Assembly (NCBI RefSeq): GCF_000148385.1
Contig: NC_014537.1
Span: 900,001 to 932,000 of the forward strand
Reading direction: 5' to 3'
Length of the DNA stretch: 32,000 nt
Source: Vulcanisaeta distributa DSM 14429
Lineage (GTDB): Archaea; Thermoproteota; Thermoprotei; Thermoproteales; Thermocladiaceae
Below are positions 6,438-31,718 of this stretch, in pieces (positions within the stretch are counted from its first letter, which is position 1; every line of letters starts with the position of its first letter). The translations under genes were made by a program, and so were the position numbers. The notes below the pieces were generated by a model, which worked only from the letters and a program-made list of their open reading frames with translations, was not told the origin of the DNA and ran no database searches.

Positions 6438-8042
6438 GTGAAGGTTGGTGTTGTGATTAAGGCGCAGAGCCCCAGGGCATTCTGGTTTAGGGTATTTGAT
6501 AATGTTGAGGATAGGATAAACGTTGGTACATTCGTAACCCTGGACAATTATGAAAGTAGGGTCAATGGCCCAATACTTGCAAGGGTGACTAGGGTTATTA
6601 GGCATAATTACCTGGTGGATGATAGGGTCATCGCCCAGCTGGGAAGTGAGGACGTTATAAACACCTTCAGGGACTATGGGATAGACATTCAATATATTGC
6701 CCAATCAACGCTGGCCAGGGCATCAATCATCGGTTACAGAGTCGGTACACGATTCTCTAAACCGCTTAAGCCTCCAAAGCCCATGGACTTCGTATACCTA
6801 CCAACAGAGGGTGAATTGAGTAAGTTACTTAGGCTCGATAATGGTGGTGTTAGGCTTGTCATTGGTAGTGTTAGGTCACTATCAATACCTGCTGAGCTAG
6901 ACGCCAATAAGTTAGTGTCTCATCACTGTGCAATACTGGCTGCCACAGGTGGTGGTAAGTCCTGGCTCGCCGGTGTTATTGTTGAAGAATTAGTATTGAG
7001 GGCAGAAATACCGATAATAATCATTGATCCCCACGGCGAATACTCAGCAATGCAGGTTCCTAAATCCTCAGTTGATGATGCTAAGTATGTGGCTAGTCTA
7101 GTTAAGGTATACGTACCCGGCAAGGTCGATACCACGAGCTTAGATGATTACTTCAAGGCTCGGTTCAGTGTTAAGAGGAAGTATGTGAGGTTTGGCATCA
7201 ACCCAAGGTCATTATCACTGAGACTCATGGAGGGACTACTCGACCATTATTACGGACTTACTGACGCCCAGAGGAGGATTCTTGAGGAGGCCTGGCAATA
7301 CATGGGTATGGATAACGAATTAACGGGCCTAGACGAGTTCCTCAATGACCTGGAGAAGAGCGGTGGTAGGGTTGTTAAGGGCTATGGTAACGAGCTAGCC
7401 CTATCCACGTTATTGACTAAGGTTAAGATGCTCATTGAGAACAGGCCGTTTTTCATAACAAGGCCTGGTGAGTTTTACGGTAATGAACCGATAAGGCTCC
7501 TGGACATTAAGGATCTAATGGAGTATGGAATCCACGTACTGGATCTTAGCGGCTTAGACTTAGTAGATCAACAGGCACTTGTTGCACTGATACTAAATAA
7601 TATATTCAGGATATCCTCAATGAGGAGGGATAGGCTGGTCTTCATAGTTGTTGAGGAGGCTCATAATTATGCGCCATCGGTTGGTTCATCATTAAGTACG
7701 TCAGCACTAATAAAGATTGCCAGGGAAGGCCGTAAATTCGGTGTTGGGCTATGCATAATTAGCCAAAGACCGTCCAAGGTGCACCCAGACGTTTTGAGTC
7801 AATGCTTAACCCAGGTCTTTAAGAGGATAATAAACCCGGTCGATCTTAGGTATGTGAGGAATGTGGTTGAGTTCATATCTGATGAGGATTTATGGGAGGT
7901 GAGGGTTCTTAATGAGGATGATGCCTTAGTGACAGGGTTGGCTGTTCCAATGCCATTACCTGTTAAGGTTAGGGATAGATTGACGGAGCATGGGGGTGTG
8001 ACGCCAGCGCTTATACCGAGGGGTAATATCACTAGGGTGTAA
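6438..8042 (+). CDS. HerA-family (FtsK/HerA superfamily, DUF87-type) hexameric translocase ATPase paralogue
   Basis: 534-aa ORF with a GTG start. It has an N-terminal HAS-barrel-like segment ('VGVVIKAQSPRAFWFRVFDN...GTFVTLDN...ILARVTRV'), Walker A 'AILAATGGGKSW' and Walker B 'LVFIVVEEAHNYAP'. The later 'GRKFGVGLCIISQRPSKV' is typical of HerA/DUF87 ATPases. Confidence 0.85.
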   Translation: MKVGVVIKAQSPRAFWFRVFDNVEDRINVGTFVTLDNYESRVNGPILARVTRVIRHNYLVDDRVIAQLGSEDVINTFRDYGIDIQYIAQSTLARASIIGYRVGTRFSKPLKPPKPMDFVYLPTEGELSKLLRLDNGGVRLVIGSVRSLSIPAELDANKLVSHHCAILAATGGGKSWLAGVIVEELVLRAEIPIIIIDPHGEYSAMQVPKSSVDDAKYVASLVKVYVPGKVDTTSLDDYFKARFSVKRKYVRFGINPRSLSLRLMEGLLDHYYGLTDAQRRILEEAWQYMGMDNELTGLDEFLNDLEKSGGRVVKGYGNELALSTLLTKVKMLIENRPFFITRPGEFYGNEPIRLLDIKDLMEYGIHVLDLSGLDLVDQQALVALILNNIFRISSMRRDRLVFIVVEEAHNYAPSVGSSLSTSALIKIAREGRKFGVGLCIISQRPSKVHPDVLSQCLTQVFKRIINPVDLRYVRNVVEFISDEDLWEVRVLNEDDALVTGLAVPMPLPVKVRDRLTEHGGVTPALIPRGNITRV

Positions 8043-8108
8043 TTTAAGTATAATTTGAGTATAATAGGGTCAGGTAAAACTTTTATTGTACTCTCGTGAA
8101 CGATTACT

Positions 8109-9074
8109 GTGCGTATAATCCTTGGTACGCCGGTGAACTCGAGGCCTAAGCCTTGGCTTTACTTCCGCGTACCAGCCATAATGGTTAATGCCTTTGACAT
8201 TATGAGGAGCAGAATTAGTAAGGGAGGTCATGTTATAAAGAATGTGCTTCAGTACGATGGTGAGGTTTGGATGGATAGTGGTGGTTTTCAATTTCTAAGG
8301 TATGGCAAAATACCTGACATTGAGGATTTAGCCAGGGTTTATGATCAGTATTGGGATATCAGGTACTTCCTGAACCTTGACTACCCACCAAGCCCCACTG
8401 ACGATGAGCATAATTTAGAACTGAAATTAAGGGGATCACTCCATAATTACGAGTACTTGGCTAAGAAATTTGATAATGTCTTACCAGTAATTCATTACCA
8501 CTGGAGAACTAACATTATTACTAAGTACGTGATTAAGTACCTGGATTTTAACCCAGACTGCATCGCAATAGGTGGCTTAGTGCCTTACGTATTAATAAGT
8601 AGAGGTGTACCTAAGGATTCACGAAGATCGGCACTGAGGTTCTTACTAAATATCAAGCGAGAAACTAACACGTGCATTCACGTACTTGGTCTTGGATCCC
8701 CAGTAATAAATCCAATACTCAAGCTCATAAACATTGATAGCACAGACACAAGTACCTGGAGGGTTAAGGCAGCCTATGGAAAGGTTGTCATGCCAGGCGG
8801 TGGTGAAAGGCACGTCAGTGGTAGGGCCATAAACTTCGGAGGTAAGGAGGCCACGAGCGACGATTTAATGAGGTTGTACGCGTTCCTTAAGGCTACGGGC
8901 TTTCCCATGATTGATCAGTTTAATGAGATTGTAACGAGCTTTGAATATAGGGCTTTGGTCAACGCGTGGGTTGTTCTCAATAGCTTTAAAGTGGCGAGTG
9001 GTGGCGTGTTTAAAGCCATATATGATGAATTGGCAAGGGAGGTTACGGAACAGATTATTGAGGGTACACGTTAG
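8109..9074 (+). CDS. Stand-alone TGT-superfamily transglycosylase, DpdA-like (short form, no Zn motif, no PUA/C-terminal domains)
   Basis: 321-aa ORF with a GTG start (alternative ATG at 8181). It carries ordered TGT signatures: 'MDSGGFQF', 'LNLDYPPSP', 'IAIGGLVP', 'HVLGLGSP', 'IDSTDTSTW...AAYGKVV'. There is no CxCxxC...H motif, only two isolated Cys. A TATA-like 'TTTTATT' sits at 8081-8087, about 24 nt upstream. Confidence 0.7.
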   Translation: MRIILGTPVNSRPKPWLYFRVPAIMVNAFDIMRSRISKGGHVIKNVLQYDGEVWMDSGGFQFLRYGKIPDIEDLARVYDQYWDIRYFLNLDYPPSPTDDEHNLELKLRGSLHNYEYLAKKFDNVLPVIHYHWRTNIITKYVIKYLDFNPDCIAIGGLVPYVLISRGVPKDSRRSALRFLLNIKRETNTCIHVLGLGSPVINPILKLINIDSTDTSTWRVKAAYGKVVMPGGGERHVSGRAINFGGKEATSDDLMRLYAFLKATGFPMIDQFNEIVTSFEYRALVNAWVVLNSFKVASGGVFKAIYDELAREVTEQIIEGTR

Positions 9075-12504: not shown

Positions 12505-12849
12505 ATGAGTAGCAGTAATGAGGTGCTTAATGAGATAGTTAATGTGGTTGCTGAGGAGGTTTACAAATACCTAATGCGTAAACTCCCTGAGAAGCTTCTT
12601 GAGGATATAGTTATTAATGTGGGATTTACGGACATGAATAATTATACCCTCGAGATTAGCATTGATGTAATGACGAATCCATTATTAAAGGGTCTTGATG
12701 ATATAATTAATGATGCTGTTGAGTTTGGGTTTAAAATAGCGGATTACTTAATGGATAAGTTCAGGAGGGGTGAATTGGTTGGCTTATCAACTGGAGAAAT
12801 TGAAAGAATTGCTGAGGAATACACAAAGAGTCTGCGTAATGACACATAG
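12505..12849 (+). CDS. Small conserved archaeal protein of unknown function (possibly DUF3194)
   Basis: 114-aa ORF directly after pfdB, a position I recall for DUF3194 in archaea. The family call is tentative. Confidence 0.55.
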   Translation: MSSSNEVLNEIVNVVAEEVYKYLMRKLPEKLLEDIVINVGFTDMNNYTLEISIDVMTNPLLKGLDDIINDAVEFGFKIADYLMDKFRRGELVGLSTGEIERIAEEYTKSLRNDT

Positions 12850-13768
12850 GCATGCAGACCTAGACGCATACGCATGTGGTGTGGCCACTAAGGAATTGAT
12901 TAATAAGCTTGGTCTCAATGCCGCCCTGGTAATCCCTGAGGGCCCTTCCTACGAGGTTAAAACGTTCATTACCAGACTTGGCATAAATTACCAGGGCCTA
13001 AATAATTGCGATGAAGCGGACTTAATATTCCTGGTCGATGTTAGTACGTATGCTCAGTTGAATGAGTTTAGAAACATAATTGGTGATAGGCCTGTGGTGG
13101 TTGTGGATCATCATGAGGTGCGTAATGTGGTTCCTACGGTATCCCTCGTGGACCCGAACGCCACAAGCTGTTCCGAGATTATAGCCCGGGTATTTAGGGA
13201 ATTTGAAATTGAACCTAGTACCGAGATCGCAACCCTCCTCATTGGTGGTGTACTGAGTGATAGTGGTAGGTTGAGTAGGGCTAGGCCTGAGACCTTTGAG
13301 GTGCTGGCGTGGCTGCTTAGGCTGGCTGGTAGGGATTATAGGGAGATAGTTAATGCGATGATTGAGGAGGTAACGTTTTCCGAGAGGATGGCTAAGGTTA
13401 AGGGCTTGCTTCGAATGAGGGCTTATAGGGCTGGTGATTATATAATCTGCCTAAGTAATGTAAATGCTTATGAATCATCACTCGCTGATACGCTGATTAA
13501 GTCGGGTTGTGACGTTGCATTGGTGGTTTCAGAGCATGATGGGGAAATGAGATTATTTGGCAGGGGTAGTAGGAGGATTGCTGAGAAGTTATCGCTTGCC
13601 GAGGTCTTTAATGATTTAGCTAAGTACTTTAATGGTGAGGGTGGCGGTCACGCAATGGCGGCTGCCCTGAGTATTAAGGCGAGGATCGACCCAACAACAG
13701 TATTAATAAAGGCTTTAAGTAGTGTTGAGCAAAGACTTGGTATTAAGGCATTAAGAATAACCGATTAA
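12770..13768 (+). CDS. DHH/DHHA1-family phosphoesterase (NrnA/RecJ-like)
   Basis: Motifs 'VMTHRHADLDAYACG' (DHH I), 'VVVVDHHE' (DHH) and 'GGGHAMAAA' (DHHA1). The GTG start at 12770 keeps the first beta-strand 'RVCVMTH' and overlaps the upstream ORF by 80 nt. An ATG at 12839 would truncate that strand. Confidence 0.85.
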   Translation: MNWLAYQLEKLKELLRNTQRVCVMTHRHADLDAYACGVATKELINKLGLNAALVIPEGPSYEVKTFITRLGINYQGLNNCDEADLIFLVDVSTYAQLNEFRNIIGDRPVVVVDHHEVRNVVPTVSLVDPNATSCSEIIARVFREFEIEPSTEIATLLIGGVLSDSGRLSRARPETFEVLAWLLRLAGRDYREIVNAMIEEVTFSERMAKVKGLLRMRAYRAGDYIICLSNVNAYESSLADTLIKSGCDVALVVSEHDGEMRLFGRGSRRIAEKLSLAEVFNDLAKYFNGEGGGHAMAAALSIKARIDPTTVLIKALSSVEQRLGIKALRITD

Positions 13769-13810: not shown

Positions 13811-15157
13811 TCACCTTAATCTCAACTCCATAATAACTCTACCTATACCTATTGAGAATAATGATTCAGTAAGCCTATTAGTTACGTACTGCGTACTTAC
13901 ACCAGCGGTTGATCCATTAATGCCTATGGCAACAATTCCAGCACTTACATTACCTGAAGCTACCTGGCTATCCTCATAATTAAATACCTGTAATGTACAC
14001 CATGAAACCGCACTGACCTGTGATTGATACGTAGGTACTAGGTACTGTACTGGGGTTATGGGTATCACCGACCCATTAAAGAAGTCATATGCCTGCAAAT
14101 AGCCTCCAAACAGTAATGAGCCGTTAAGTAGGTATAGCCCCATTGGGTAGTTCTCGGTTTCATAAACAGGTATTGAATAACCACTCTGCGTTATGTAATT
14201 GACCTGAAGTAGGTAGTAGGTATTTGGTATGCAGGATGGATTTACTATAGTGCCGTTCGGCATCAGGAGTATTGGTGATATGTAAATCACGGGTCCAAAG
14301 GGTACTAGCCTCGGTCTTTGGTATATTGCGTATCCATAATTTGTGATTTCGCCGATGGTCATGTTAGGGCTAAGGGTTAAGTGAGTTATTAATGATGAAT
14401 TAACGTACTCGCTAAATGAATAACTAAGGACCTGAAGTACCTCCTGGAAGCCTGAACTAGGCCATGAGCTTGCGTTAATGCCTTGTCCAACCCACATTGT
14501 GAATACGCTTAGCCCAGGTAAGCTAACTTCATAATACTCACCAACGCCCTTCGTGGCTGGATTATAACCGTAGTAGTAATTCCATAGGTAATACGGCTCT
14601 CCATTAAGGGCGATTAAGTAACCACCGACGGTGCTTAGCCCACCTAACACTTGTGTGAGGCTTTCATTGCTTGTTTTGAATGCGAAAACTACGTACTCTT
14701 CACCATTTAAATCCTCGGTTATTAATACATACCAATTAGCATATACAGGCTGCGGATAAAGCAGGTACAATGGAACCTTTAATACCCACGTAATGCCACC
14801 CGTAGCATTAGTTATTGCCGTTGCATTAAGTAAAACCCACTGCTGCGCCGTGGTTTCTGAGGCATTGATTATGTACAATGTGAATTCCTTATCTGCCGTT
14901 GCCACCCAGACAGGCGTTACATTATCAATTAATGAGTCCTCATGATAGGTTAATGGGTATTCATTAACTATGCTACTTAAAAATTGTACCGTTGGTCTCG
15001 AGTCTGTCAAGTTCATTGTTATTACGTACTTCGCGTAGACTACGGGTGTGGGTGCCGGGCCATAAATTGTGTTTGCGTAAGTAATAGATGAGATTAATAT
15101 CAATATAATCGCTAGAGTTAGTGCATATGTTATCCATTTATTAGTCATCATATTCAT
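13811..15157 (-). CDS. Secreted or surface-anchored Tyr/Asn-rich glycoprotein, unknown family
   Basis: 448-aa ORF with an N-terminal signal/anchor 'MNMMTNKWITYALTLAIILILISSITYA'. I count about 14 N-x-S/T sequons (NLT, NVT, NAS, NAT x2, NES, NAS, NSS, NMT, NGT, NGS x3, NVS). It is very Tyr-rich and has no C-terminal TM helix. It is divergent from the ATPase gene across a 101-bp region. Confidence 0.75.
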   Translation of the reverse strand: MNMMTNKWITYALTLAIILILISSITYANTIYGPAPTPVVYAKYVITMNLTDSRPTVQFLSSIVNEYPLTYHEDSLIDNVTPVWVATADKEFTLYIINASETTAQQWVLLNATAITNATGGITWVLKVPLYLLYPQPVYANWYVLITEDLNGEEYVVFAFKTSNESLTQVLGGLSTVGGYLIALNGEPYYLWNYYYGYNPATKGVGEYYEVSLPGLSVFTMWVGQGINASSWPSSGFQEVLQVLSYSFSEYVNSSLITHLTLSPNMTIGEITNYGYAIYQRPRLVPFGPVIYISPILLMPNGTIVNPSCIPNTYYLLQVNYITQSGYSIPVYETENYPMGLYLLNGSLLFGGYLQAYDFFNGSVIPITPVQYLVPTYQSQVSAVSWCTLQVFNYEDSQVASGNVSAGIVAIGINGSTAGVSTQYVTNRLTESLFSIGIGRVIMELRLR

Positions 15158-15258
15158 TTAATGCTGTATTGCAATTATATATAAGTTTCTCACCGCTATG
15201 AGTTACTGAAATCATGAAGCAGAAAGTATTTTAGGGGGTTTATTCTTTAACAAATTGA
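15158..15258. promoter_or_regulatory. Divergent promoter region between the glycoprotein gene and the secretion ATPase gene
   Basis: A/T-rich 101-bp spacer. 'TTATATATAAG' (~15174-15184) lies about 20-25 nt from the minus-strand ATG at 15157. 'AAGTATTTTA' (~15224-15233) lies about 28 nt upstream of the ATG at 15259. Confidence 0.4.
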
Positions 15259-16794
15259 ATGAGCTTAGACTTTCAGTTAATAAAGCCTGTCGGTCAACTT
15301 AAGGAGCTGGAGAGATATCCATTATATGAACCATTTGCATACGCAACAATAGTCCAGGATGAAAAGACTGGGGATATCATGTATTACCTCGAGGAAATAA
15401 CGCTTGACCCAGTCGAGCAACAAGTGTATAAGGAATTGGTGAGGATTGTAATGCTCGAGCTACCACCACCCGAGGAATTGACGAAGATGGGTGATGTGAA
15501 GAATTACCTGCTCAATGAACTAAAGAAGATTGTTGGTAGATATAGAAGACTCTTTAGAAACGTGTCTCCATCGTCCTTCGCTAAATTCCTATACTACATG
15601 GAGAGGGACTTGCTTGGTTATGGCCCAATAGATGCCTTAATGAGGGATGAGAATATTGAGGATATATCATGTGACGGCGTTGGCAAGCCTGTCTACGTAT
15701 TTCATAGGAAGTATGAGTCCATACCAACAAACATTGTGCCAATGACCGACCAGGCTCTTGATGACTTAGTCGTTAAGTTAATACACATGTCTGGTAGGCA
15801 CGTATCGGTGGCAACGCCAATAGTTGATGCCCAATTACCTGATGGTTCAAGGATAGCCGTTACGTATAGGAGGGAGGTTTCACCAGGTGGTTCCACGTTC
15901 ACGATAAGGAAGTTCAGAAAGAATCCACTAACATTTACAGAATTAGTTAGATTTGGAAATATCAGCGCAGAAATCGCTGGTTACTTCTGGGTGATGCTTG
16001 ATAATGGTAGGTCATTCCTAGTGCTTGGCGTCACAGGCGCTGGTAAAACGAGCTTCCTCAATGCCATGGCCACATTCATTAGGCCCCACATGAAGATAAT
16101 AACCGTTGAGGAGGTCCCAGAGATAAACCTACCGCACAAGAATTGGGTTAGGCTTGTTACGAGGCAGAGCTATGGTGCTGAGAAGATAAATGAGATCACG
16201 CTATTTGACCTGGTTAAGGCAACGCTTAGGATGAGACCTGATTACTTAATCGTCGGTGAGATCAGAGGTGAGGAGGCCTACGTATTGTTCCAAGCCGTGA
16301 ACACAGGCCATAGTGGTATATCGACAATGCACGCAGAGTCCTTTGAGGCGGCTGTTAATAGGCTCATGAGCCCACCAATGAATATACCACCGGCTTACAT
16401 ACCTGCCATGAACATATTCGTCATGATTAAGAGGGTTAAGATTGGTGGTAGGTTGACGAGGAGGGTCACTGAGGTTGGTGAGGTCTATATGGATGGTGAC
16501 AAGATTAGGTTCAATACGGTATTTAGGTGGAATCCAAGGACCGATACGCATGATTCATACGTTGAAAAGAGTATTTTAGTTAGGCAAATTAGCGATATGA
16601 CTGGTAAGGACGTTGATGAGATCCTCAGGGAAATAGATACTAGGGCGAAGATAGTTAGTTGGATGGTGGAGAATGGAATATTTAATTTCGAGGATGTCTC
16701 AACGTATGTACAGACATACTATACAAACCCAGATAAGATACTCAACCAGGTCTTTGGAAAGGTGAGCGATGTTGAAAGTATTACTCAGGTTTAA
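15259..16794 (+). CDS. Type II/IV secretion-system superfamily ATPase (archaeal FlaI/ArlI-, TadA/VirB11-like)
   Basis: 511-aa ORF with Walker A 'GVTGAGKTS', Asp-box region 'IITVEEVPEINLP', Walker B 'RMRPDYLIVGEIRGEEA' and His box 'NTGHSGISTMHAES'. The N-terminal domain has 'IEDISCDG...VYVFHRKY', typical of FlaI/GspE-type N domains. Confidence 0.9.
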   Translation: MSLDFQLIKPVGQLKELERYPLYEPFAYATIVQDEKTGDIMYYLEEITLDPVEQQVYKELVRIVMLELPPPEELTKMGDVKNYLLNELKKIVGRYRRLFRNVSPSSFAKFLYYMERDLLGYGPIDALMRDENIEDISCDGVGKPVYVFHRKYESIPTNIVPMTDQALDDLVVKLIHMSGRHVSVATPIVDAQLPDGSRIAVTYRREVSPGGSTFTIRKFRKNPLTFTELVRFGNISAEIAGYFWVMLDNGRSFLVLGVTGAGKTSFLNAMATFIRPHMKIITVEEVPEINLPHKNWVRLVTRQSYGAEKINEITLFDLVKATLRMRPDYLIVGEIRGEEAYVLFQAVNTGHSGISTMHAESFEAAVNRLMSPPMNIPPAYIPAMNIFVMIKRVKIGGRLTRRVTEVGEVYMDGDKIRFNTVFRWNPRTDTHDSYVEKSILVRQISDMTGKDVDEILREIDTRAKIVSWMVENGIFNFEDVSTYVQTYYTNPDKILNQVFGKVSDVESITQV

Positions 16795-17137
16795 AGATTT
16801 AAATTCCCTGGTTAAGTATTTAAATGAAGAATTGAATAAATTACTAATAGCCAAGAAGATACTGGATGATGAAGCGAAGAGGGACTCCCTCGTGGATATA
16901 ATAGAGATAGGGAGTAATGGTAATATTAGCATGAGGAGAGATAGGATATCAGAAATAATGAAAGGGATTATGAATGAACTTAATAGTAGGATTGAACATA
17001 TTAATCAACTACTTGAGGAGATAAAGGAGGAATTCAATGATAGTAATTTCACGGGCATAGTATTATTGGAGTTCAATAATGGAATACCAAATAGAGTATT
17101 ACTATCACAACCACTAACCTTGGGTGACTTTTCATGA
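16769..17137 (+). CDS. Small cytoplasmic protein, member of a local paralogue family (family X)
   Basis: 122-aa ORF that overlaps the ATPase gene by 26 nt. It has the family N-terminus 'MLKVLLRFKDLNSLVKYLNEEL' and C-terminal hairpin motif 'GIVLLEFNNGIPNRVLL'. The start is supported by alignment with paralogue N-termini. Confidence 0.65.
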   Translation: MLKVLLRFKDLNSLVKYLNEELNKLLIAKKILDDEAKRDSLVDIIEIGSNGNISMRRDRISEIMKGIMNELNSRIEHINQLLEEIKEEFNDSNFTGIVLLEFNNGIPNRVLLSQPLTLGDFS

Positions 17138-18003
17138 TATTCATGATACCCATGATACCGATATTAATAATAGTGATAATGATTGGAATGATAATACTAG
17201 GCCTTATTAGGCCGCCTTTAACCGTTATTCTACCATTGCTTGGCATTTACATAATATTAATGCTAATACCTTACATATTACCTAATTTAGTAATTAATCA
17301 ATACCTTAGTATTAAATATATCATATTACCAATAATAGGTTTAGCAATGGGTTATGGAATATCAATATTAATGAGTAAATACATGAATATCGATGTACGT
17401 TCACTGTTTGGGTTAAGGCAGGACCAAAGAAGGAAGGTTAAGAAGGTGAGGACTCGGGGTAAGCAGAAAGTTGAGAAAAGGCCTGAGGTTAAGCCTGAGG
17501 ATTTAGATAGGTTCATTAATGAGTCAATTAATACATTGAAACTTGGTATATCAATTAATGAGGCATTAGGCAGTTGGGTTGAGTATTATGATGGCTGGAC
17601 GGATGCTATAATAAGTATTTCTAGGAGGTTTATAGATATTAGGGAAAGTGTTGAAGCCATTAATAAGGAGGCGTTATTTCTATCAAGGATTAGGCAGTAT
17701 GAAAATAAGGCCCTATCACTTGGCTTAACACTGAGGGAGGAGTCAGCCTTTAAGAAACAGAGGAGATCAAGGTCTAAGAGTGATGAGGATAGATTGGTAA
17801 TTTATGTTAGGCCTGAGGAATTGGCTGGTGAGTTAATGACCACCGCGCAATTAATGAGCGGTTACGTCGATGAATTTAATGGAATACTTGAGAAGTTAAT
17901 ACATGATAAGGGGATTTCTCAATATATGGTTAATTCGCAGATACTGGTTCTCTATGTTGATGGGATACCCAGGAAGTTCATAACAATTAATAAGGGCAGC
18001 TAG
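17134..18003 (+). CDS. Membrane-anchored family X member (3 N-terminal TM helices, basic linker, cytoplasmic domain)
   Basis: 289-aa ORF with an ATGA overlap to the upstream gene. It has Met/Ile-rich TM helices in residues ~3-82, then 'RQDQRRKVKKVRTRGKQKVEKR'. The C-terminus 'ILVLYVDGIPRKFITIN' shares the family motif. It does not resemble the FlaJ/TadC T2SSF layout. Confidence 0.75.
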   Translation: MIFMIPMIPILIIVIMIGMIILGLIRPPLTVILPLLGIYIILMLIPYILPNLVINQYLSIKYIILPIIGLAMGYGISILMSKYMNIDVRSLFGLRQDQRRKVKKVRTRGKQKVEKRPEVKPEDLDRFINESINTLKLGISINEALGSWVEYYDGWTDAIISISRRFIDIRESVEAINKEALFLSRIRQYENKALSLGLTLREESAFKKQRRSRSKSDEDRLVIYVRPEELAGELMTTAQLMSGYVDEFNGILEKLIHDKGISQYMVNSQILVLYVDGIPRKFITINKGS

Positions 18004-18407
18004 GCACCTTCCTCATTCTGTACGATGATCATTGCGGGTATTGAATCAACAAGTAGTGCAATTATTGGGCGATTCTTATCAATATTAAGTGCCTCTAATC
18101 TATCAATTACAGACTTTATAATCGCAGACCTCCTCTGTATGTAACCAGCTACATCATTAATCACATTACTCTTCGTATTAGTACCTGGCTTATAAACAAT
18201 CCTTAGAGAAAATACCTCTAAGGAGCCATCGACAAACCTAATGTTCTCCGAGATCTCGCTTGCCAATGCCGTATTATTCTCAGAACCAAGTATCTCATTC
18301 CAATTCTGCTTAAGCATGTACATGAACCTATACGAATTACCCAATTCGCCTTTCAATGTCTGAATTAATTCGTTCAATGATCTGAATCTCTTAATCTCAA
18401 TAATCAT
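18000..18407 (-). CDS. Small cytoplasmic protein, family X member
   Basis: 135-aa ORF with N-terminus 'MIIEIKRFRSLNELIQTLKGEL' and C-terminus 'IIALLVDSIPAMIIVQ'. It has a 4-nt overlap with the upstream gene, and its stop codon shares CTAG (18000-18003) with the convergent gene. Confidence 0.7.
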   Translation of the reverse strand: MIIEIKRFRSLNELIQTLKGELGNSYRFMYMLKQNWNEILGSENNTALASEISENIRFVDGSLEVFSLRIVYKPGTNTKSNVINDVAGYIQRRSAIIKSVIDRLEALNIDKNRPIIALLVDSIPAMIIVQNEEGA

Positions 18408-19051
18408 GAAGAACCACCAATAACTTCCTCAATCTTCTTAAATTGCTCCGGATAATTTATATCGCTTAATCTAACGGTTGTTTCGAAATTCCTTGAGTTA
18501 TTGTTAATTGCTGAGATTGCCTCATCAATCATAATCATTATCTTAGCCAATTCATCAGCTGTTAAACCAGAAATACCGCTTAAGATACTTGGTACCTCAG
18601 TTGATTCCCTAATATTAGGCAAGTGCAGTATTGATGTATCCGATACATCAGGTAATGAATAACCTACTACCACATCTATTGACGTATTATCTATTATAAT
18701 TACATACTCATCGCTCATGCCGAGCTTCTCTGTGAATTCCATAGCCTGCTTAATGGACATGAGTACATTTGTATAGTAATTAATTGCATCCTTAATCGCC
18801 TCCTTATAACCACTGGCCGTTAGTACGTATATTACCTCAATATCATCAGCCTTAGTCGTTACGTTCATACCGCCCTTAATGTATGTGGCTGAGGACCTAC
18901 TTCTTAATTCCCTGATTAGTTTATTCACGGACTCATTATCGGGATTGTAAGCATGTATTTCATTAATGACCTGCATTATTTCATTAAGTTTATTACCAAG
19001 ATCCAGAGCTATATCCCTTAATCTATCACTTCTTAGTACTATCAAGGTCAA
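18404..19051 (-). CDS. Family X member with a C-terminal extension of about 90 aa
   Basis: 215-aa ORF with N-terminus 'MTLIVLRSDRLRDIALDLGNKL' and an internal hairpin 'YVIIIDNTSIDVVVGY'. An extra helical tail follows ('LTADELAKIMIMIDEAISAINN...'). Confidence 0.7.
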   Translation of the reverse strand: MTLIVLRSDRLRDIALDLGNKLNEIMQVINEIHAYNPDNESVNKLIRELRSRSSATYIKGGMNVTTKADDIEVIYVLTASGYKEAIKDAINYYTNVLMSIKQAMEFTEKLGMSDEYVIIIDNTSIDVVVGYSLPDVSDTSILHLPNIRESTEVPSILSGISGLTADELAKIMIMIDEAISAINNNSRNFETTVRLSDINYPEQFKKIEEVIGGSS

Positions 19052-19415
19052 TCACCACCAGTGATGGTACATCACTAAAGTACCTAACCATGGCTTTAAA
19101 ACCATAATCCTTAAGCTTACTTAACCTAGCCTCGAGAGCCTCATAAATTGCGTATTCTAACTTAAGAAATTGAACAGCCTTTAAAAACAATTCCCTATAG
19201 GCCTCCTTTGATGGTTCTCTATATAGGATTATCGATATTGAGTTAGGTATATCAATAACAATTCTCTCACTTTTATCGGGTAAGTTGTTTTCACTGATTA
19301 TCTTCTTGTAAATTTCGTATAGGTTCTTCACATACTCAGAGACCCTTTTCTTATTCTCAAGAACTCTCCTATGTAATTCCTTCACATCAATGCTCATGTC
19401 AAGGTTTGCGCTCAT
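19026..19415 (-). CDS. Small cytoplasmic protein, divergent family X member
   Basis: 129-aa ORF with central 'RIVIDIPNSISIILY' and C-terminal 'AMVRYFSDVPSLVVIDL' hairpin motifs. It has a 4-nt overlap with the upstream gene and a 26-nt overlap with the downstream gene. Confidence 0.7.
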   Translation of the reverse strand: MSANLDMSIDVKELHRRVLENKKRVSEYVKNLYEIYKKIISENNLPDKSERIVIDIPNSISIILYREPSKEAYRELFLKAVQFLKLEYAIYEALEARLSKLKDYGFKAMVRYFSDVPSLVVIDLDSTKK

Positions 19416-19807
19416 GGCATTATCACCAGCCTCGTTTTCTTATTGGCATAATCTATCATAACCATTACGGATGCGTTTCTATCCTTAATTTCACTTAAGT
19501 ACTTACTCACCTTCTCAATCTGACCTATTACATAATTAATATTGTCATTTATCGCGTTCAATTTATTCAATAGCCATGTTGAGTGAGGCGCAATATGTAT
19601 GTTTAATGCATGTGGTATGGCCTGCACAGTTATTACTTGATGAGACGGCTGAAAACCAAGTTTCATGAGTTTCTCCTCCACGTCAGCATTTATTTTCAGT
19701 TTCTCCCTAATTACACCATAACGTTCCCTTAAGGTTGATAATTGTTCTTTGATTATATTCAATTTGTTTATTGCATCCTCAACCGTGCTAAATAATAGCA
19801 CTAACAT
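19412..19807 (-). CDS. Small cytoplasmic protein, family X member (first gene of the minus-strand operon)
   Basis: 131-aa ORF with N-terminus 'MLVLLFSTVEDAINKLNIIKEQL' and C-terminus 'SVMVMIDYANKKTRLVIM'. A TATA-like 'AATAAATATA' lies on the minus strand about 27 nt upstream of the ATG. Confidence 0.7.
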   Translation of the reverse strand: MLVLLFSTVEDAINKLNIIKEQLSTLRERYGVIREKLKINADVEEKLMKLGFQPSHQVITVQAIPHALNIHIAPHSTWLLNKLNAINDNINYVIGQIEKVSKYLSEIKDRNASVMVMIDYANKKTRLVIMP

Positions 19808-19882
19808 TCAGATTCTTATTAATTAGGCTATATTTATTCTTTACTTGTGAAAGTGATGGTATGCCCCTATTTAGAGACGGCA

Positions 19883-20113
19883 TTAAATCCTCTCCTCTCT
19901 AATCAACCTGGAGATCTCACTTATAGCCCTGTTTATATCCCTAATATCATTATGTATAGCCATTATTTCCGCCATAATCAATGAATTATCTAAACACTTA
20001 ATAAGCAGGTCAGCCCAACTCTTTGAATGATATATCTGCTTGAGTTTTTTCAGTTCTTTATATTGCTGCTCATCAACCTCAATCACGATTCTTTTCTTGC
20101 CATTCTTAGCCAT
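19883..20113 (-). CDS. Putative ribbon-helix-helix (CopG/Arc/MetJ-like) DNA-binding protein with a coiled-coil tail
   Basis: 76-aa ORF. 'KKRIVIEVDEQQYKELKKLKQIYHSKSWADLLIKCL' fits a strand-helix-helix RHH pattern. It lies directly upstream of, and is co-oriented with, the family X operon. A TATA-like 'CTTTAAAAT' lies about 30 nt upstream. Confidence 0.55.
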   Translation of the reverse strand: MAKNGKKRIVIEVDEQQYKELKKLKQIYHSKSWADLLIKCLDNSLIMAEIMAIHNDIRDINRAISEISRLIREERI

Positions 20114-30974: not shown

Positions 30975-31718
30975 TTGATAAGCAATCCAATAATTAGATT
31001 TAATAGGGATTATGTAACAGTCTCTGAAATAGCCCAACAACTGTACTGCGAGTACAAGTTGCATTTATCAATAATTGAGGGCAGGATCCAAACGCCAGCC
31101 ATGGAGATGGGTATAATAATTCATGACGAGGTGTTTAAGGGACGGAGTGTTAATGAGGAGGAGTTCATGAATGCCGTTAGGAGTAATGAGCTTGTGGTTG
31201 CCACATTACCATTAATGATTAATATAAATGGGATTAACATAATTGGTATACCTGATGCCGTAGTATTTATGAAGGGTGTTGCCAAGGCAGTCATCGAGCT
31301 AAAGACAAGTAATAGGTGGTTGGATAGATTATTCGACAACGAGTATGTGCAGGCGCAATTATATGCGTACTTAATTAACAAGCTGGGCCTGGGCGCTGAT
31401 CCCTATGTCATGGTGGTAAAGGTGAAGCGTGATGTAAGTATTACGGAGAGGTTACGCCGGAGCATATTCTCCACAGCAATTAAGTACTTAACGAGTGCTG
31501 TGGAGTTACCTGCCAGGATTAGGTTTAGGGATTTCACGATATACATCAATGAGTTTGATAAATCAATAGAAGCGCATCTAAGGTGGGCTTTGGATTACTG
31601 GTTAATGCGTAGGGAGCCTAGGGCAATACCATCAGTTGGCAAGTGCGCAGTGTGTGAGTTTAATGATAAATGCCCATTCAGGGCCTACGGCCCCAACACC
31701 AATGTGGTAAATACGTAA
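30975..31718 (+). CDS. Cas4-like PD-(D/E)xK nuclease with a 4-Cys cluster (DUF83 family), solo
   Basis: 247-aa ORF with a TTG start. It has the N-terminal Cys 'QQLYCEYK', nuclease motifs 'IPDAVVF...AVIELKTS', 'QAQLYAYL' (QxxxY) and the C-terminal 'CAVCEFNDKC' (Cx2Cx5C). No cas genes or repeats are in the window. Confidence 0.75.
   Translation: MISNPIIRFNRDYVTVSEIAQQLYCEYKLHLSIIEGRIQTPAMEMGIIIHDEVFKGRSVNEEEFMNAVRSNELVVATLPLMININGINIIGIPDAVVFMKGVAKAVIELKTSNRWLDRLFDNEYVQAQLYAYLINKLGLGADPYVMVVKVKRDVSITERLRRSIFSTAIKYLTSAVELPARIRFRDFTIYINEFDKSIEAHLRWALDYWLMRREPRAIPSVGKCAVCEFNDKCPFRAYGPNTNVVNT

Follow-up and report, generated by a model that had tools for sequence, protein, structure and literature searches.

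What is a type IV pilus-type motor doing where neither a membrane platform nor pilins are encoded beside it? The question is raised by a nine-gene block of the archaeon Vulcanisaeta distributa DSM 14429 (positions 13811-20113 of the window, by which we mean the whole 32-kb stretch analyzed, i.e., positions 900,001 to 932,000 of contig NC_014537.1), in which a 511-amino-acid (aa) GspE/FlaI-type secretion ATPase is accompanied by eight genes that a preliminary description of the sequence could place in no family. That description left two options: either the genes encode new accessories or scaffold proteins of a FlaI-like motor, with platform and filament genes located elsewhere, or they form a distinct ATPase-driven system.

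Archaeal type IV pilus-like systems are thought to require just an ATPase, a TadC platform, pilins and a peptidase; to our knowledge, cytoplasmic accessories of such systems are, the archaellum aside, almost unstudied. Our analysis favors the first option: relatives of the Vulcanisaeta ATPase sit in pilus loci that bear T2SSF platform genes, and a small protein family, which appears to include six of the eight neighbors, is repeatedly encoded beside that ATPase clade. The searches reported here yielded no positive evidence for a distinct ATPase-driven system. We do not read the locus as a machine of unknown kind but as a variant of the subclade 4A type IV pilus-like systems, and we give a probability of about 0.5 to the specific form of this reading in which a type IV pilus-like motor works with a genus-specific, partly membrane-anchored cytoplasmic scaffold, its platform and pilins being encoded elsewhere. 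The most economical reading of the small (~140-aa) family, judged from sequence and gene neighborhood, is that of a cytoplasmic accessory of this ATPase clade that had gone unrecognized.

Candidate paralogs around the ATPase

Each of the nine open reading frames (ORFs) of the block was found where the preliminary description had placed it—as were the ATPase motifs, the 4- and 26-nucleotide (nt) overlaps and three N-terminal transmembrane (TM) helices—and protein look-ups by exact match returned ADN50345-ADN50354. The ATPase and the six proteins at issue are encoded as follows.

15259..16794, plus strand: 511-aa GspE/FlaI-type secretion ATPase (ADN50346; Vdis_0956 by numbering), T2SSE domain with its motif set
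16769..17137, plus strand: 122-aa cytoplasmic family member (Vdis_0957), overlapping the ATPase stop by 26 nt
17134..18003, plus strand: 289-aa membrane protein with three N-terminal TM helices, a basic linker and a C-terminal family domain (about residue 145 to the end)
18000..18407, minus strand: 135-aa cytoplasmic family member, the copy nearest to the family outside Vulcanisaeta
18404..19051, minus strand: 215-aa protein (Vdis_0960) with an N-terminal family domain (about residues 1-135) and a C-terminal extension of about 80 aa
19026..19415, minus strand: 129-aa probable family member (merged profile 42%, reciprocal profile match, position)
19412..19807, minus strand: 131-aa possible family member, the least supported of the six; the minus-strand operon starts with its gene

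The sequence comparisons suggest that these six neighbors (the 122-, 135-, 129- and 131-aa proteins, the C-terminal half of the 289-aa protein and the N-terminal part of the 215-aa protein) are paralogs of one small alpha/beta family, a case that is strong for four of them and weak for the 129- and 131-aa proteins. By eye, all six share an N-terminal strand, a helix start of the form 'sLxELhxxL' and a C-terminal 'hhhhD-x-(I/V)-P-x-x-hhh' hairpin. Shallow alignments of 7-8 Vulcanisaeta orthologs for each family, compared profile to profile, did not reveal significant paralogy (best probability 10.6%); the relationship became visible only once outgroup sequences had been found. When the hidden Markov model (HMM) of each block family was run against a local database of 357 ORFs, its best non-self matches were other block families (E ~0.003-0.05, colinear). 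A merged profile (A6), searched against 1.84 billion representative proteins, returned 27 matches. Besides the Vulcanisaeta families, these included one 135-like protein from Thermocladium (P0104) and, on short metagenomic contigs (L065, L070), diverged versions of the operon 131-129-215-135. A further ten proteins, 137-155 aa long, make up alignment A7; one of them comes from a metagenome-assembled genome annotated as Desulfurococcaceae. Outgroup proteins bridge the paralogs, as single sequences match the HMMs of several block families: P0112 matches those of the 135- (4e-7), 215- (2.1e-7), 122- (4e-4) and 289-aa (6e-3) families, and Thermocladium P0104 those of the 135- (2e-17) and 122-aa (3.4e-7) families.

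Membership was judged with hhalign against a second merged profile (A7 plus the 135-aa family), as a colinear match over the order b1-a1-b2b3-a2-b4b5 together with the hhhhD-x-(I/V)-P hairpin. Such a match was obtained for four proteins. The 135-aa family itself aligns with A7 over its full length (probability 96.8%, E = 2.5e-10); the merged profile aligns colinearly with residues 6-111 of the 122-aa family (91.7%, E = 8e-7), with residues 214-283 of the 289-aa protein, i.e., its C-terminal domain (84%, E = 7.6e-6; A7 alone 48%), and with residues 12-129 of the 215-aa protein, i.e., its N-terminal domain (69%, E = 4.4e-5). The 76-aa and 448-aa proteins of the same block and TadC, used as controls, remained below 1% each. 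The 129-aa protein gave 42% (E = 2.6e-4, colinear over its full length), and the best non-self match of its HMM is the 135-aa family (E = 0.003 in the 357-ORF database); its family, itself part of the A6 search profile, was recovered by that search (P0099, P0103, P0122). For the 131-aa protein the probability is only 14.9% (E = 1.8e-3), and the top three non-self matches of its HMM all belong to the 122-aa family (E = 0.005-0.04). On these reciprocal HMM matches and their position in the operon, the 129-aa protein is a probable and the 131-aa protein a possible member. For the 215-aa gene, the start codon (TTG) is in doubt; the protein is present at NCBI in versions of 215 and 213 aa.

The eight neighbors, which the preliminary description could place in no family, gave no match above threshold in Pfam, NCBIfam, PHROGs or PADLOC; they are, however, not unrelated, as six appear to be paralogs of one another. 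The family itself has no Pfam or NCBIfam model, and at the sequence level homologs of the 135- and 289-aa proteins were found solely in Vulcanisaeta (among 5.8 billion proteins). The paralogy appears to be new here, as do the reach of the family into other Thermoprotei and its tie to one ATPase clade; none of the three is mentioned in the portions available to us of Makarova et al. (2016; PMC4858521) or of a 2026 preprint on archaeal type IV filaments, and searches of the literature for the locus tags and arCOG numbers returned nothing.

Structural models bear on the family fold to different degrees. The AlphaFold2 model of the 135-aa protein (21 sequences; predicted local distance difference test, pLDDT, 80) has the order b1-a1-b2-b3-a2-b4-b5, with two helices of ~30 residues. 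Foldseek comparison of this model with the PDB and with the BFVD viral structures returned nothing significant; the top matches were to prefoldin beta (1fxk_B; E = 0.39, probability 0.84, TM-scores 0.41/0.50), followed, also without significance, by a prefoldin filament and V-ATPase stalk subunits. The model of the 289-aa protein reached a pLDDT of only 45 and was used for secondary structure only. It places TM helices at residues 7-25, 27-48 and 60-83, followed by a K/R-rich linker, and past the TM region it shows, at low confidence, a beta-alpha...alpha-beta-beta pattern as in the 135-aa model. The linker holds 12 K/R in ~26 residues after TM3, which, by the positive-inside rule, places the 289-aa family domain in the cytoplasm with the soluble paralogs.

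The 289-aa protein was also considered as a T2SSF/TadC/FlaJ platform, an identity that we reject. It has no match to PF00482, nor any Pfam match at E <= 1; hhalign against the T2SSF proteins of related loci gave 0.3-0.6%, as compared to 71% in a control between two T2SSF families. A polytopic platform would have four to nine TM segments; the 289-aa protein has just three, all within residues 7-83, and its other ~200 residues are soluble. The TadC proteins of related loci carry three to eight TM segments spread along the chain.

Assignment of the secretion ATPase

The 511-aa protein belongs to the GspE/FlaI/VirB11 superfamily, as it matches Pfam T2SSE (PF00437) at 1.5e-34 and 119.7 bits (cut-off 24.9 bits) and carries Walker A, Walker B and His box motifs beginning at residues 257, 327 and 348. 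It is not assigned as an archaellum motor, reaching 398 bits against the NCBIfam FlaI equivalog NF058587, for which the curated cut-off is 550. Its top solved relatives are Archaeoglobus fulgidus GspE (2OAP; 354 bits, residues 17-495, full length) and Sulfolobus acidocaldarius FlaI (4II7; 271 bits).

The closest comparison outside the genus is the Caldivirga ortholog (63-66% identity), which stands alone between TBP/MATE and GuaA genes (locus L050). The other relatives, at 38-48% identity, come from Bathyarchaeia, Methanomassiliicoccales and Desulfurococcaceae-like archaea and lie in canonical pilus loci: T2SSF genes adjoin their ATPase genes (PF00482, 1e-10 to 1e-19), and class III pilin-like genes, with N-termini such as MPRSKRAISPVIAEIIIV, are present in those loci that were read. 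In one Bathyarchaeia locus (L010, 13253-14455) a ~400-aa protein with TackOD1 and zinc-ribbon domains is encoded directly after two T2SSF genes, and ORFs of like size hold the matching position in most other Bathyarchaeia loci (by size and position); it is a candidate cytoplasmic accessory of another kind.

In the tree of Makarova et al. (2016; PMC4858521), V. distributa (GI 307595080) and Caldivirga (GI 159041769) form a pair whose branch is sister to a group of Sulfolobales and Thaumarchaeota. The same source gives GuaA, MATE and TBP as neighbors of the Caldivirga gene, a context that matches our ortholog locus, and its text assigns the Vulcanisaeta and Caldivirga ATPases to subclade 4A (Aap-type). 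From this shared Caldivirga context and from the paper's text, we infer that the window ATPase is the published subclade 4A member. The authors further propose that pilins are supplied in trans for an ATPase linked with one cytoplasmic and one membrane protein, and their tables list arCOG13822 (no TM) and arCOG13823 (three TM) as 4A components with two genomes each. These arCOGs probably correspond to the 122-aa and the 289-aa gene, respectively. The earlier characterization of the system as "undescribed" was therefore overstated: the ATPase and its two downstream genes were apparently already listed by Makarova et al. (2016; PMC4858521).

Conservation, gene overlaps and composition of the locus

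Within Vulcanisaeta the block behaves as a unit. Eight other genomes of the genus carry all nine genes in unchanged order and with identical flanks (nine genomes, including the window), the chromosomal setting common to them being PfdB-DHH on one side and TmcA-pyrimidine dimer glycosylase on the other. The expectation of a conserved, syntenic block holds for these eight genomes; outside the genus it fails, as the block does not travel with the ATPase (which is alone in Caldivirga) and Thermocladium has a single member. The view of the block as chromosomal, not mobile, is borne out by its one position in all Vulcanisaeta genomes compared and by the lack of relatives among the phages, plasmids and viral contigs searched.

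ORF coordinates give overlaps of 26 nt between the ATPase and 122-aa genes and 4 nt between the 122- and 289-aa genes, which makes co-translation of the 122- and 289-aa proteins with the ATPase very likely. The convergent 289- and 135-aa genes overlap by 4 nt, and on the minus strand the overlaps are 4 nt (135/215), 26 nt (215/129) and 4 nt (129/131). The 26- and 4-nt overlaps, including that between the ATPase and 122-aa genes, are kept across the genus.

Evolution has been much faster in the accessory proteins than in the ATPase: identity within Vulcanisaeta is ~48-92% for the former and 88-99% for the latter, and pairwise dN/dS is 0.05-0.26 for the accessory genes (0.05-0.17 for the 135-aa gene) and 0.02-0.03 for the ATPase. 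The seven accessory genes at 16769-20113 are also AT-richer than the ATPase gene and flanks at every codon position, with a GC content of 0.33-0.37 (ATPase 0.44; flanks 0.42-0.50) and a third-position GC content (GC3) of 0.35-0.43 (ATPase 0.49; flanks 0.43-0.55). Fast evolution, low expression or an old foreign origin may underlie this low GC.

As the preliminary description had noted, platform and pilin genes are missing from the locus: Pfam scans of the locus and of the larger flanking ORFs of the 32-kb window found neither T2SSF nor archaeal pilin families, and Pfam/NCBIfam scans of the window found no FlaJ, FlaH or archaellin gene. The combination of ATPase, platform and pilin(s) that marks a canonical archaeal type IV pilus locus is found neither in the locus nor in the window. 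The larger flanking ORFs that were scanned are of housekeeping type (DHH, TmcA, pyrimidine-dimer glycosylase, Mrp subunits and a HerA-like ATPase).

The family beside secretion ATPases in other archaea

Single-copy relatives of ~140 aa occur in Desulfurococcaceae-like archaea and in Thermocladium. Their contexts were collected by exact-protein look-ups and one metagenome scan, and clustering of the small proteins at 85% identity left 14 assessable lineages. In eight of these a T2SSE gene lies 92-3945 nt from the family gene. By a rough estimate, with a handful of T2SSE genes present, a random gene would have one within 4 kb in ~2-3% of cases, so that the association is far above chance, in lineages that are not independent of one another and whose arrangements differ. 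The neighboring ATPases that were compared directly (L055, L066, L068) are 45-48% identical to the Vulcanisaeta enzyme and 54-60% identical among themselves. The usual order is small gene, surface protein of ~1040-1200 aa, ATPase and TadC, to which some loci add class III pilin genes; in L068, L073 and L077 the small gene lies immediately 5' of the ATPase gene on the same strand.

Other neighbors recur as well. Surface proteins of ~1040-1200 aa are encoded between the small gene and the ATPase in L055, L066, L074, L079, L082 and L092; they have an N-terminal signal and a C-terminal TM anchor (one also has a CarboxypepD_reg domain). A 2026 preprint discusses an adhesin for subclade 4A, to which these surface proteins may correspond. 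In L057, L058, L073, L077 and L082 the single-copy family gene adjoins a divergent TatD-like gene (PF01026), whether or not a pilus module is present; on these Desulfurococcaceae-like contigs, gain or loss of the pilus module may have taken place next to an anchor gene that stayed fixed. The Thermocladium gene (P0104; L063/L064, ~560-1760) lies between a gene for a protein containing a helix-turn-helix and genes for a 204-aa unknown protein and malic enzyme.

A proposed scaffold and its alternatives

We propose that the locus would hold the motor module of an Aap-related (4A) system, separated from its TadC platform and pilin genes. In Vulcanisaeta, the accessory family would have expanded six-fold around the ATPase; one paralog would have gained a three-helix membrane anchor by fusion, and two would be coupled in translation to the ATPase gene. 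The 289-aa paralog would insert in the membrane by its three helices, with its linker and family domain in the cytoplasm, and the five soluble paralogs, each predicted as a two-helix hairpin flanked by beta strands and loosely shaped like a prefoldin subunit, would hetero-oligomerize with it to form a membrane-tethered cytoplasmic scaffold. This scaffold would dock, position or regulate the hexameric ATPase, a role akin to the one that FlaX/FlaH play for the archaellum motor of Crenarchaeota, or GspL or PilM-N-O in bacteria. TadC, prepilins and prepilin peptidase would be supplied by other loci, following the proposal of Makarova et al. (PMC4858521); the divergent 448-aa glycoprotein would be a co-regulated surface component, and the 76-aa ribbon-helix-helix (RHH)-like protein would control the minus-strand operon.

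Several observations weigh against this proposal. The family is not obligatory for the ATPase, as the genes of the six-paralog block are not found beside the Caldivirga ortholog. Nor is the family linked to an ATPase in every case: six of the 14 lineages lack a T2SSE gene within 5.8-8 kb of the family gene, and no ATPase accompanies the single Thermocladium copy in the ~9 kb read from its contig. No TadC or pilin partner for the Vulcanisaeta ATPase was found in the locus or the scanned flanking ORFs of the window. The 129- and 131-aa proteins are weakly supported as paralogs, the 289-aa model (pLDDT 45) is unreliable, and composition differs between the accessory genes and the ATPase gene (GC3 0.35-0.43 vs. 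0.49). Oligomerization of the paralogs and their binding to the ATPase are steps that we purely infer.

Part of this evidence would also fit a small family with a non-pilus role of its own (chaperone-like coiled-coil or structural), in which case the minus-strand operon would be independent and its adjacency to the ATPase historical. Consistent with such a role are the housekeeping surroundings of the gene in the six lineages in which T2SSE is not nearby, the TatD-like upstream neighbor in L057/L058, L073, L077 and L082 with or without a pilus module, the lone copy in Thermocladium, the loose prefoldin-like resemblance and the distinct GC composition of the block. We nevertheless consider this somewhat unlikely, given that T2SSE lies within 4 kb in eight of 14 lineages, in varied arrangements, as compared to ~2-3% estimated for a random gene, that two paralog genes in Vulcanisaeta overlap the ATPase gene and each other, and that the small gene directly precedes the ATPase gene on the same strand in L068 and L073. 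Far more improbable is that the seven low-GC genes, from the 122-aa through the 76-aa gene, are the remnant of a virus or plasmid integrated beside the ATPase gene. Their GC content (0.33-0.37, against 0.42-0.50 in the flanks), their small overlapping genes, including an RHH-like one, and their restriction to the genus at the sequence level might suggest such an origin; yet the best PHROGs match (E = 0.003) is not significant, PADLOC gave no supporting matches, IMG/VR, INPHARED and PLSDB hold no relatives and BFVD no structural match, integrase or repeats were not seen in the locus, the block occupies one and the same position in all nine Vulcanisaeta genomes (counting the window), with all genes under purifying selection, and the distant relatives are chromosomal single-copy genes.

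A different departure from the pilus model keeps the six proteins with the motor and changes what the motor does: a repurposed, platform-independent ATPase might have acquired the three-TM 289-aa protein and five soluble paralogs as a new partner complex, possibly a hetero-oligomeric ring, and drive something other than pilin extraction. T2SSF and pilin genes were not found in the locus, whereas relatives have them in cis; the two genes directly after the ATPase gene hold the slot of the two T2SSF genes in Bathyarchaeia loci; one paralog bears TM helices; and the paralogs number six, as do the subunits of the hexameric motor, although that match is numerology. A like idea is raised for the pilin-less subclade 4D in the portion of PMC4858521 available to us. 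Such repurposing seems to us distinctly unlikely, since purifying selection on the ATPase is very strong and the enzyme is not divergent within its clade, since the persistence of the Caldivirga ortholog without partner genes makes partners in trans normal for the lineage, and since the family coexists with TadC in other lineages and does not replace it. In its boldest form, the ATPase would work without any TadC/FlaJ, and six prefoldin-like paralogs, one anchored by three TM helices, would form a hetero-oligomeric cytoplasmic ring that couples the hexamer to the membrane; we find an unknown envelope machine of this kind very doubtful. It is more likely than this TadC-free ring machine that the ~140-aa family is a general, so far unrecognized cytoplasmic component of subclade 4A archaeal pili.

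Under the preferred reading, i.e., a pilus-like motor with its own cytoplasmic scaffold, a family tied to one ATPase clade over distant Thermoprotei would have been expanded and membrane-anchored in the one genus where platform genes are missing from the locus. The small family offers concrete candidates, with a function suggested by genomic context, for the scaffold or regulator that is still missing from the motor of Aap-like pili, and the locus is a natural test case for ATPases that run with trans-encoded platforms or without platforms. Should the family prove unrelated to pili, the locus would be an ordinary genus-specific cluster beside a stand-alone ATPase.

Comparison with known systems

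Among described systems, the Sulfolobus Aap pilus of subclade 4A (AapE ATPase, AapF platform, AapA/B pilins and AapX) provides the closest frame, as the window ATPase probably belongs to that clade; the Sulfolobus member of the clade would be AapE, judging by arithmetic on GI numbers and the papers' text. Related uncultured lineages combine ATPase, TadC and a large surface protein, with pilins where these were read. Unlike Aap systems, the Vulcanisaeta locus lacks TadC/AapF, pilins and AapX, and has instead six candidate paralogs, one of them membrane-anchored. In the available parts of PMC4858521, the small family is not among the 4A components except for the two Vulcanisaeta-specific arCOGs. 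The two-gene systems of subclade 4D in Pyrobaculum and Thermoproteus, as described there, combine an ATPase with a protein of 4-5 TM, have no pilins and are suspected of an altered function. They resemble our locus in that a pilus-type ATPase of Thermoproteales is encoded together with a membrane protein other than T2SSF, while pilins in cis are lacking. The window locus differs in that its ATPase is placed in clade 4A, not 4D, the TFIIB/RPB8 association is absent, and the membrane protein is fused to a family domain and accompanied by five soluble paralogs.

The proposed scaffold has possible counterparts in role. In the crenarchaeal archaellum, FlaI, FlaH and FlaX combine a hexameric FlaI-type ATPase with a membrane-anchored protein whose large cytoplasmic coiled-coil is a proposed motor scaffold. 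A motor ATPase and a membrane-anchored putative scaffold would be common to both systems; however, sequence relation to FlaX or FlaH was not found, and the 289-aa protein has three TM where FlaX-type proteins have one. No FlaX-named model was among the matches to Pfam and NCBIfam, libraries that may not contain one. Accessories of bacterial type II secretion systems and type IV pili (GspL/GspM, PilM/PilN/PilO) are small proteins, in part bitopic, by which the secretion ATPase is held at the membrane and regulated. The role proposed here would be alike; on the other hand, their ferredoxin-like domains are periplasmic and the Vulcanisaeta family domains predicted cytoplasmic, and no bacterial accessory was among the 50 best Foldseek matches listed for the 135-aa model.

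With prefoldin (GimC), the small family shares a core of helix, beta-hairpin and helix, to which it adds extra N-terminal and C-terminal strands. Sub-threshold prefoldin matches recur for the small proteins (best E = 0.001-0.16; PF02996/PF01920 and TIGR00293, none reaching threshold). Membership of the prefoldin family was rejected, with hhalign against the genome's own PfdB below 2% and a Foldseek E of 0.39, and 'prefoldin-like' is here a description of shape only, not of membership.

Other features of the locus and window

The remaining features of the block are the following.

13811..15157, minus strand: 448-aa secreted glycoprotein, divergent from the ATPase gene, with a Sec-type signal and sequons
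15158..15258, no strand: divergent intergenic region of 101 nt with A/T-rich TATA-like boxes
19788-19883, minus strand: 31-aa ORF bridging the 76- and 131-aa genes, probably annotated ADN50353
19883..20113, minus strand: 76-aa RHH-like protein with an RHH-like N-terminus and a C-terminal helix; sub-threshold matches

The 448-aa protein has, as described earlier, an ordinary Sec-like signal and no K/R-G/A cleavage motif. Across its family the N-terminus runs from M(M)TNKW through a hydrophobic stretch to TYA|N, within a conserved TYA|N..YGPAPTP, and the protein carries 14 NxS/T sequons. By eye, no K/R-G/A motif was found ahead of the hydrophobic stretch of the 448-aa protein and no hydrophobic N-terminus in the small proteins, so that neither is identified as a class III pilin or archaellin. 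Homologs of the 448-aa protein were found only in Vulcanisaeta (among 5.8 billion proteins), and dN/dS of its gene is 0.12-0.16. The gene sits where related loci hold a surface protein, divergent from the ATPase gene, and the glycoprotein is possibly a surface protein or adhesin of the module. No homology to the ~1100-aa surface proteins of related loci was detected.

In the intergenic region, TATA-like boxes lie ~20-26 nt ahead of the 448-aa gene start (TTATATATAA) and ~25-32 nt ahead of the ATPase ATG (TATTTTAG); further boxes precede the 131-aa gene (TAAATATA, ~25-30 nt) and the 76-aa gene (TTTAAAA, ~26-32 nt). These elements probably act as promoters, to judge by motif and spacing, and their positions suggest four transcription units. 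A scan of the locus for sigma-70 promoters and terminators was uninformative, the host being an archaeon.

The label "RHH-like" for the 76-aa protein is suggestive only: its N-terminal KKRIVIEVDEQQY resembles an RHH strand by eye, and matches to VapB antitoxin (E = 0.021) and RHH_3 (E = 0.13) point the same way, both below threshold. The protein is kept in all Vulcanisaeta genomes compared (dN/dS 0.05-0.12) and possibly regulates the minus-strand operon. As a member of the small alpha/beta family it was rejected (<1% with the merged family profile). The 31-aa ORF at 19788-19883 was judged spurious as a gene: it is kept in close relatives alone, and just where it overlaps the 131-aa gene start, without conservation in distant species.

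Elsewhere in the window, the gene of a 534-aa HerA/DUF87 ATPase (Pfam 1.7e-35) precedes that of a 321-aa protein without a Pfam match (6438-9074, plus strand), a pair that may be of HerA-NurA type, and a 247-aa Cas4/Exo5-like PD-(D/E)XK nuclease is encoded at 30975-31718 (plus strand). The DHH phosphoesterase ORF (12770-13768), with its GTG start as listed, overlaps the preceding 114-aa ORF (12505-12849) by 80 nt, and its true start probably lies further downstream.

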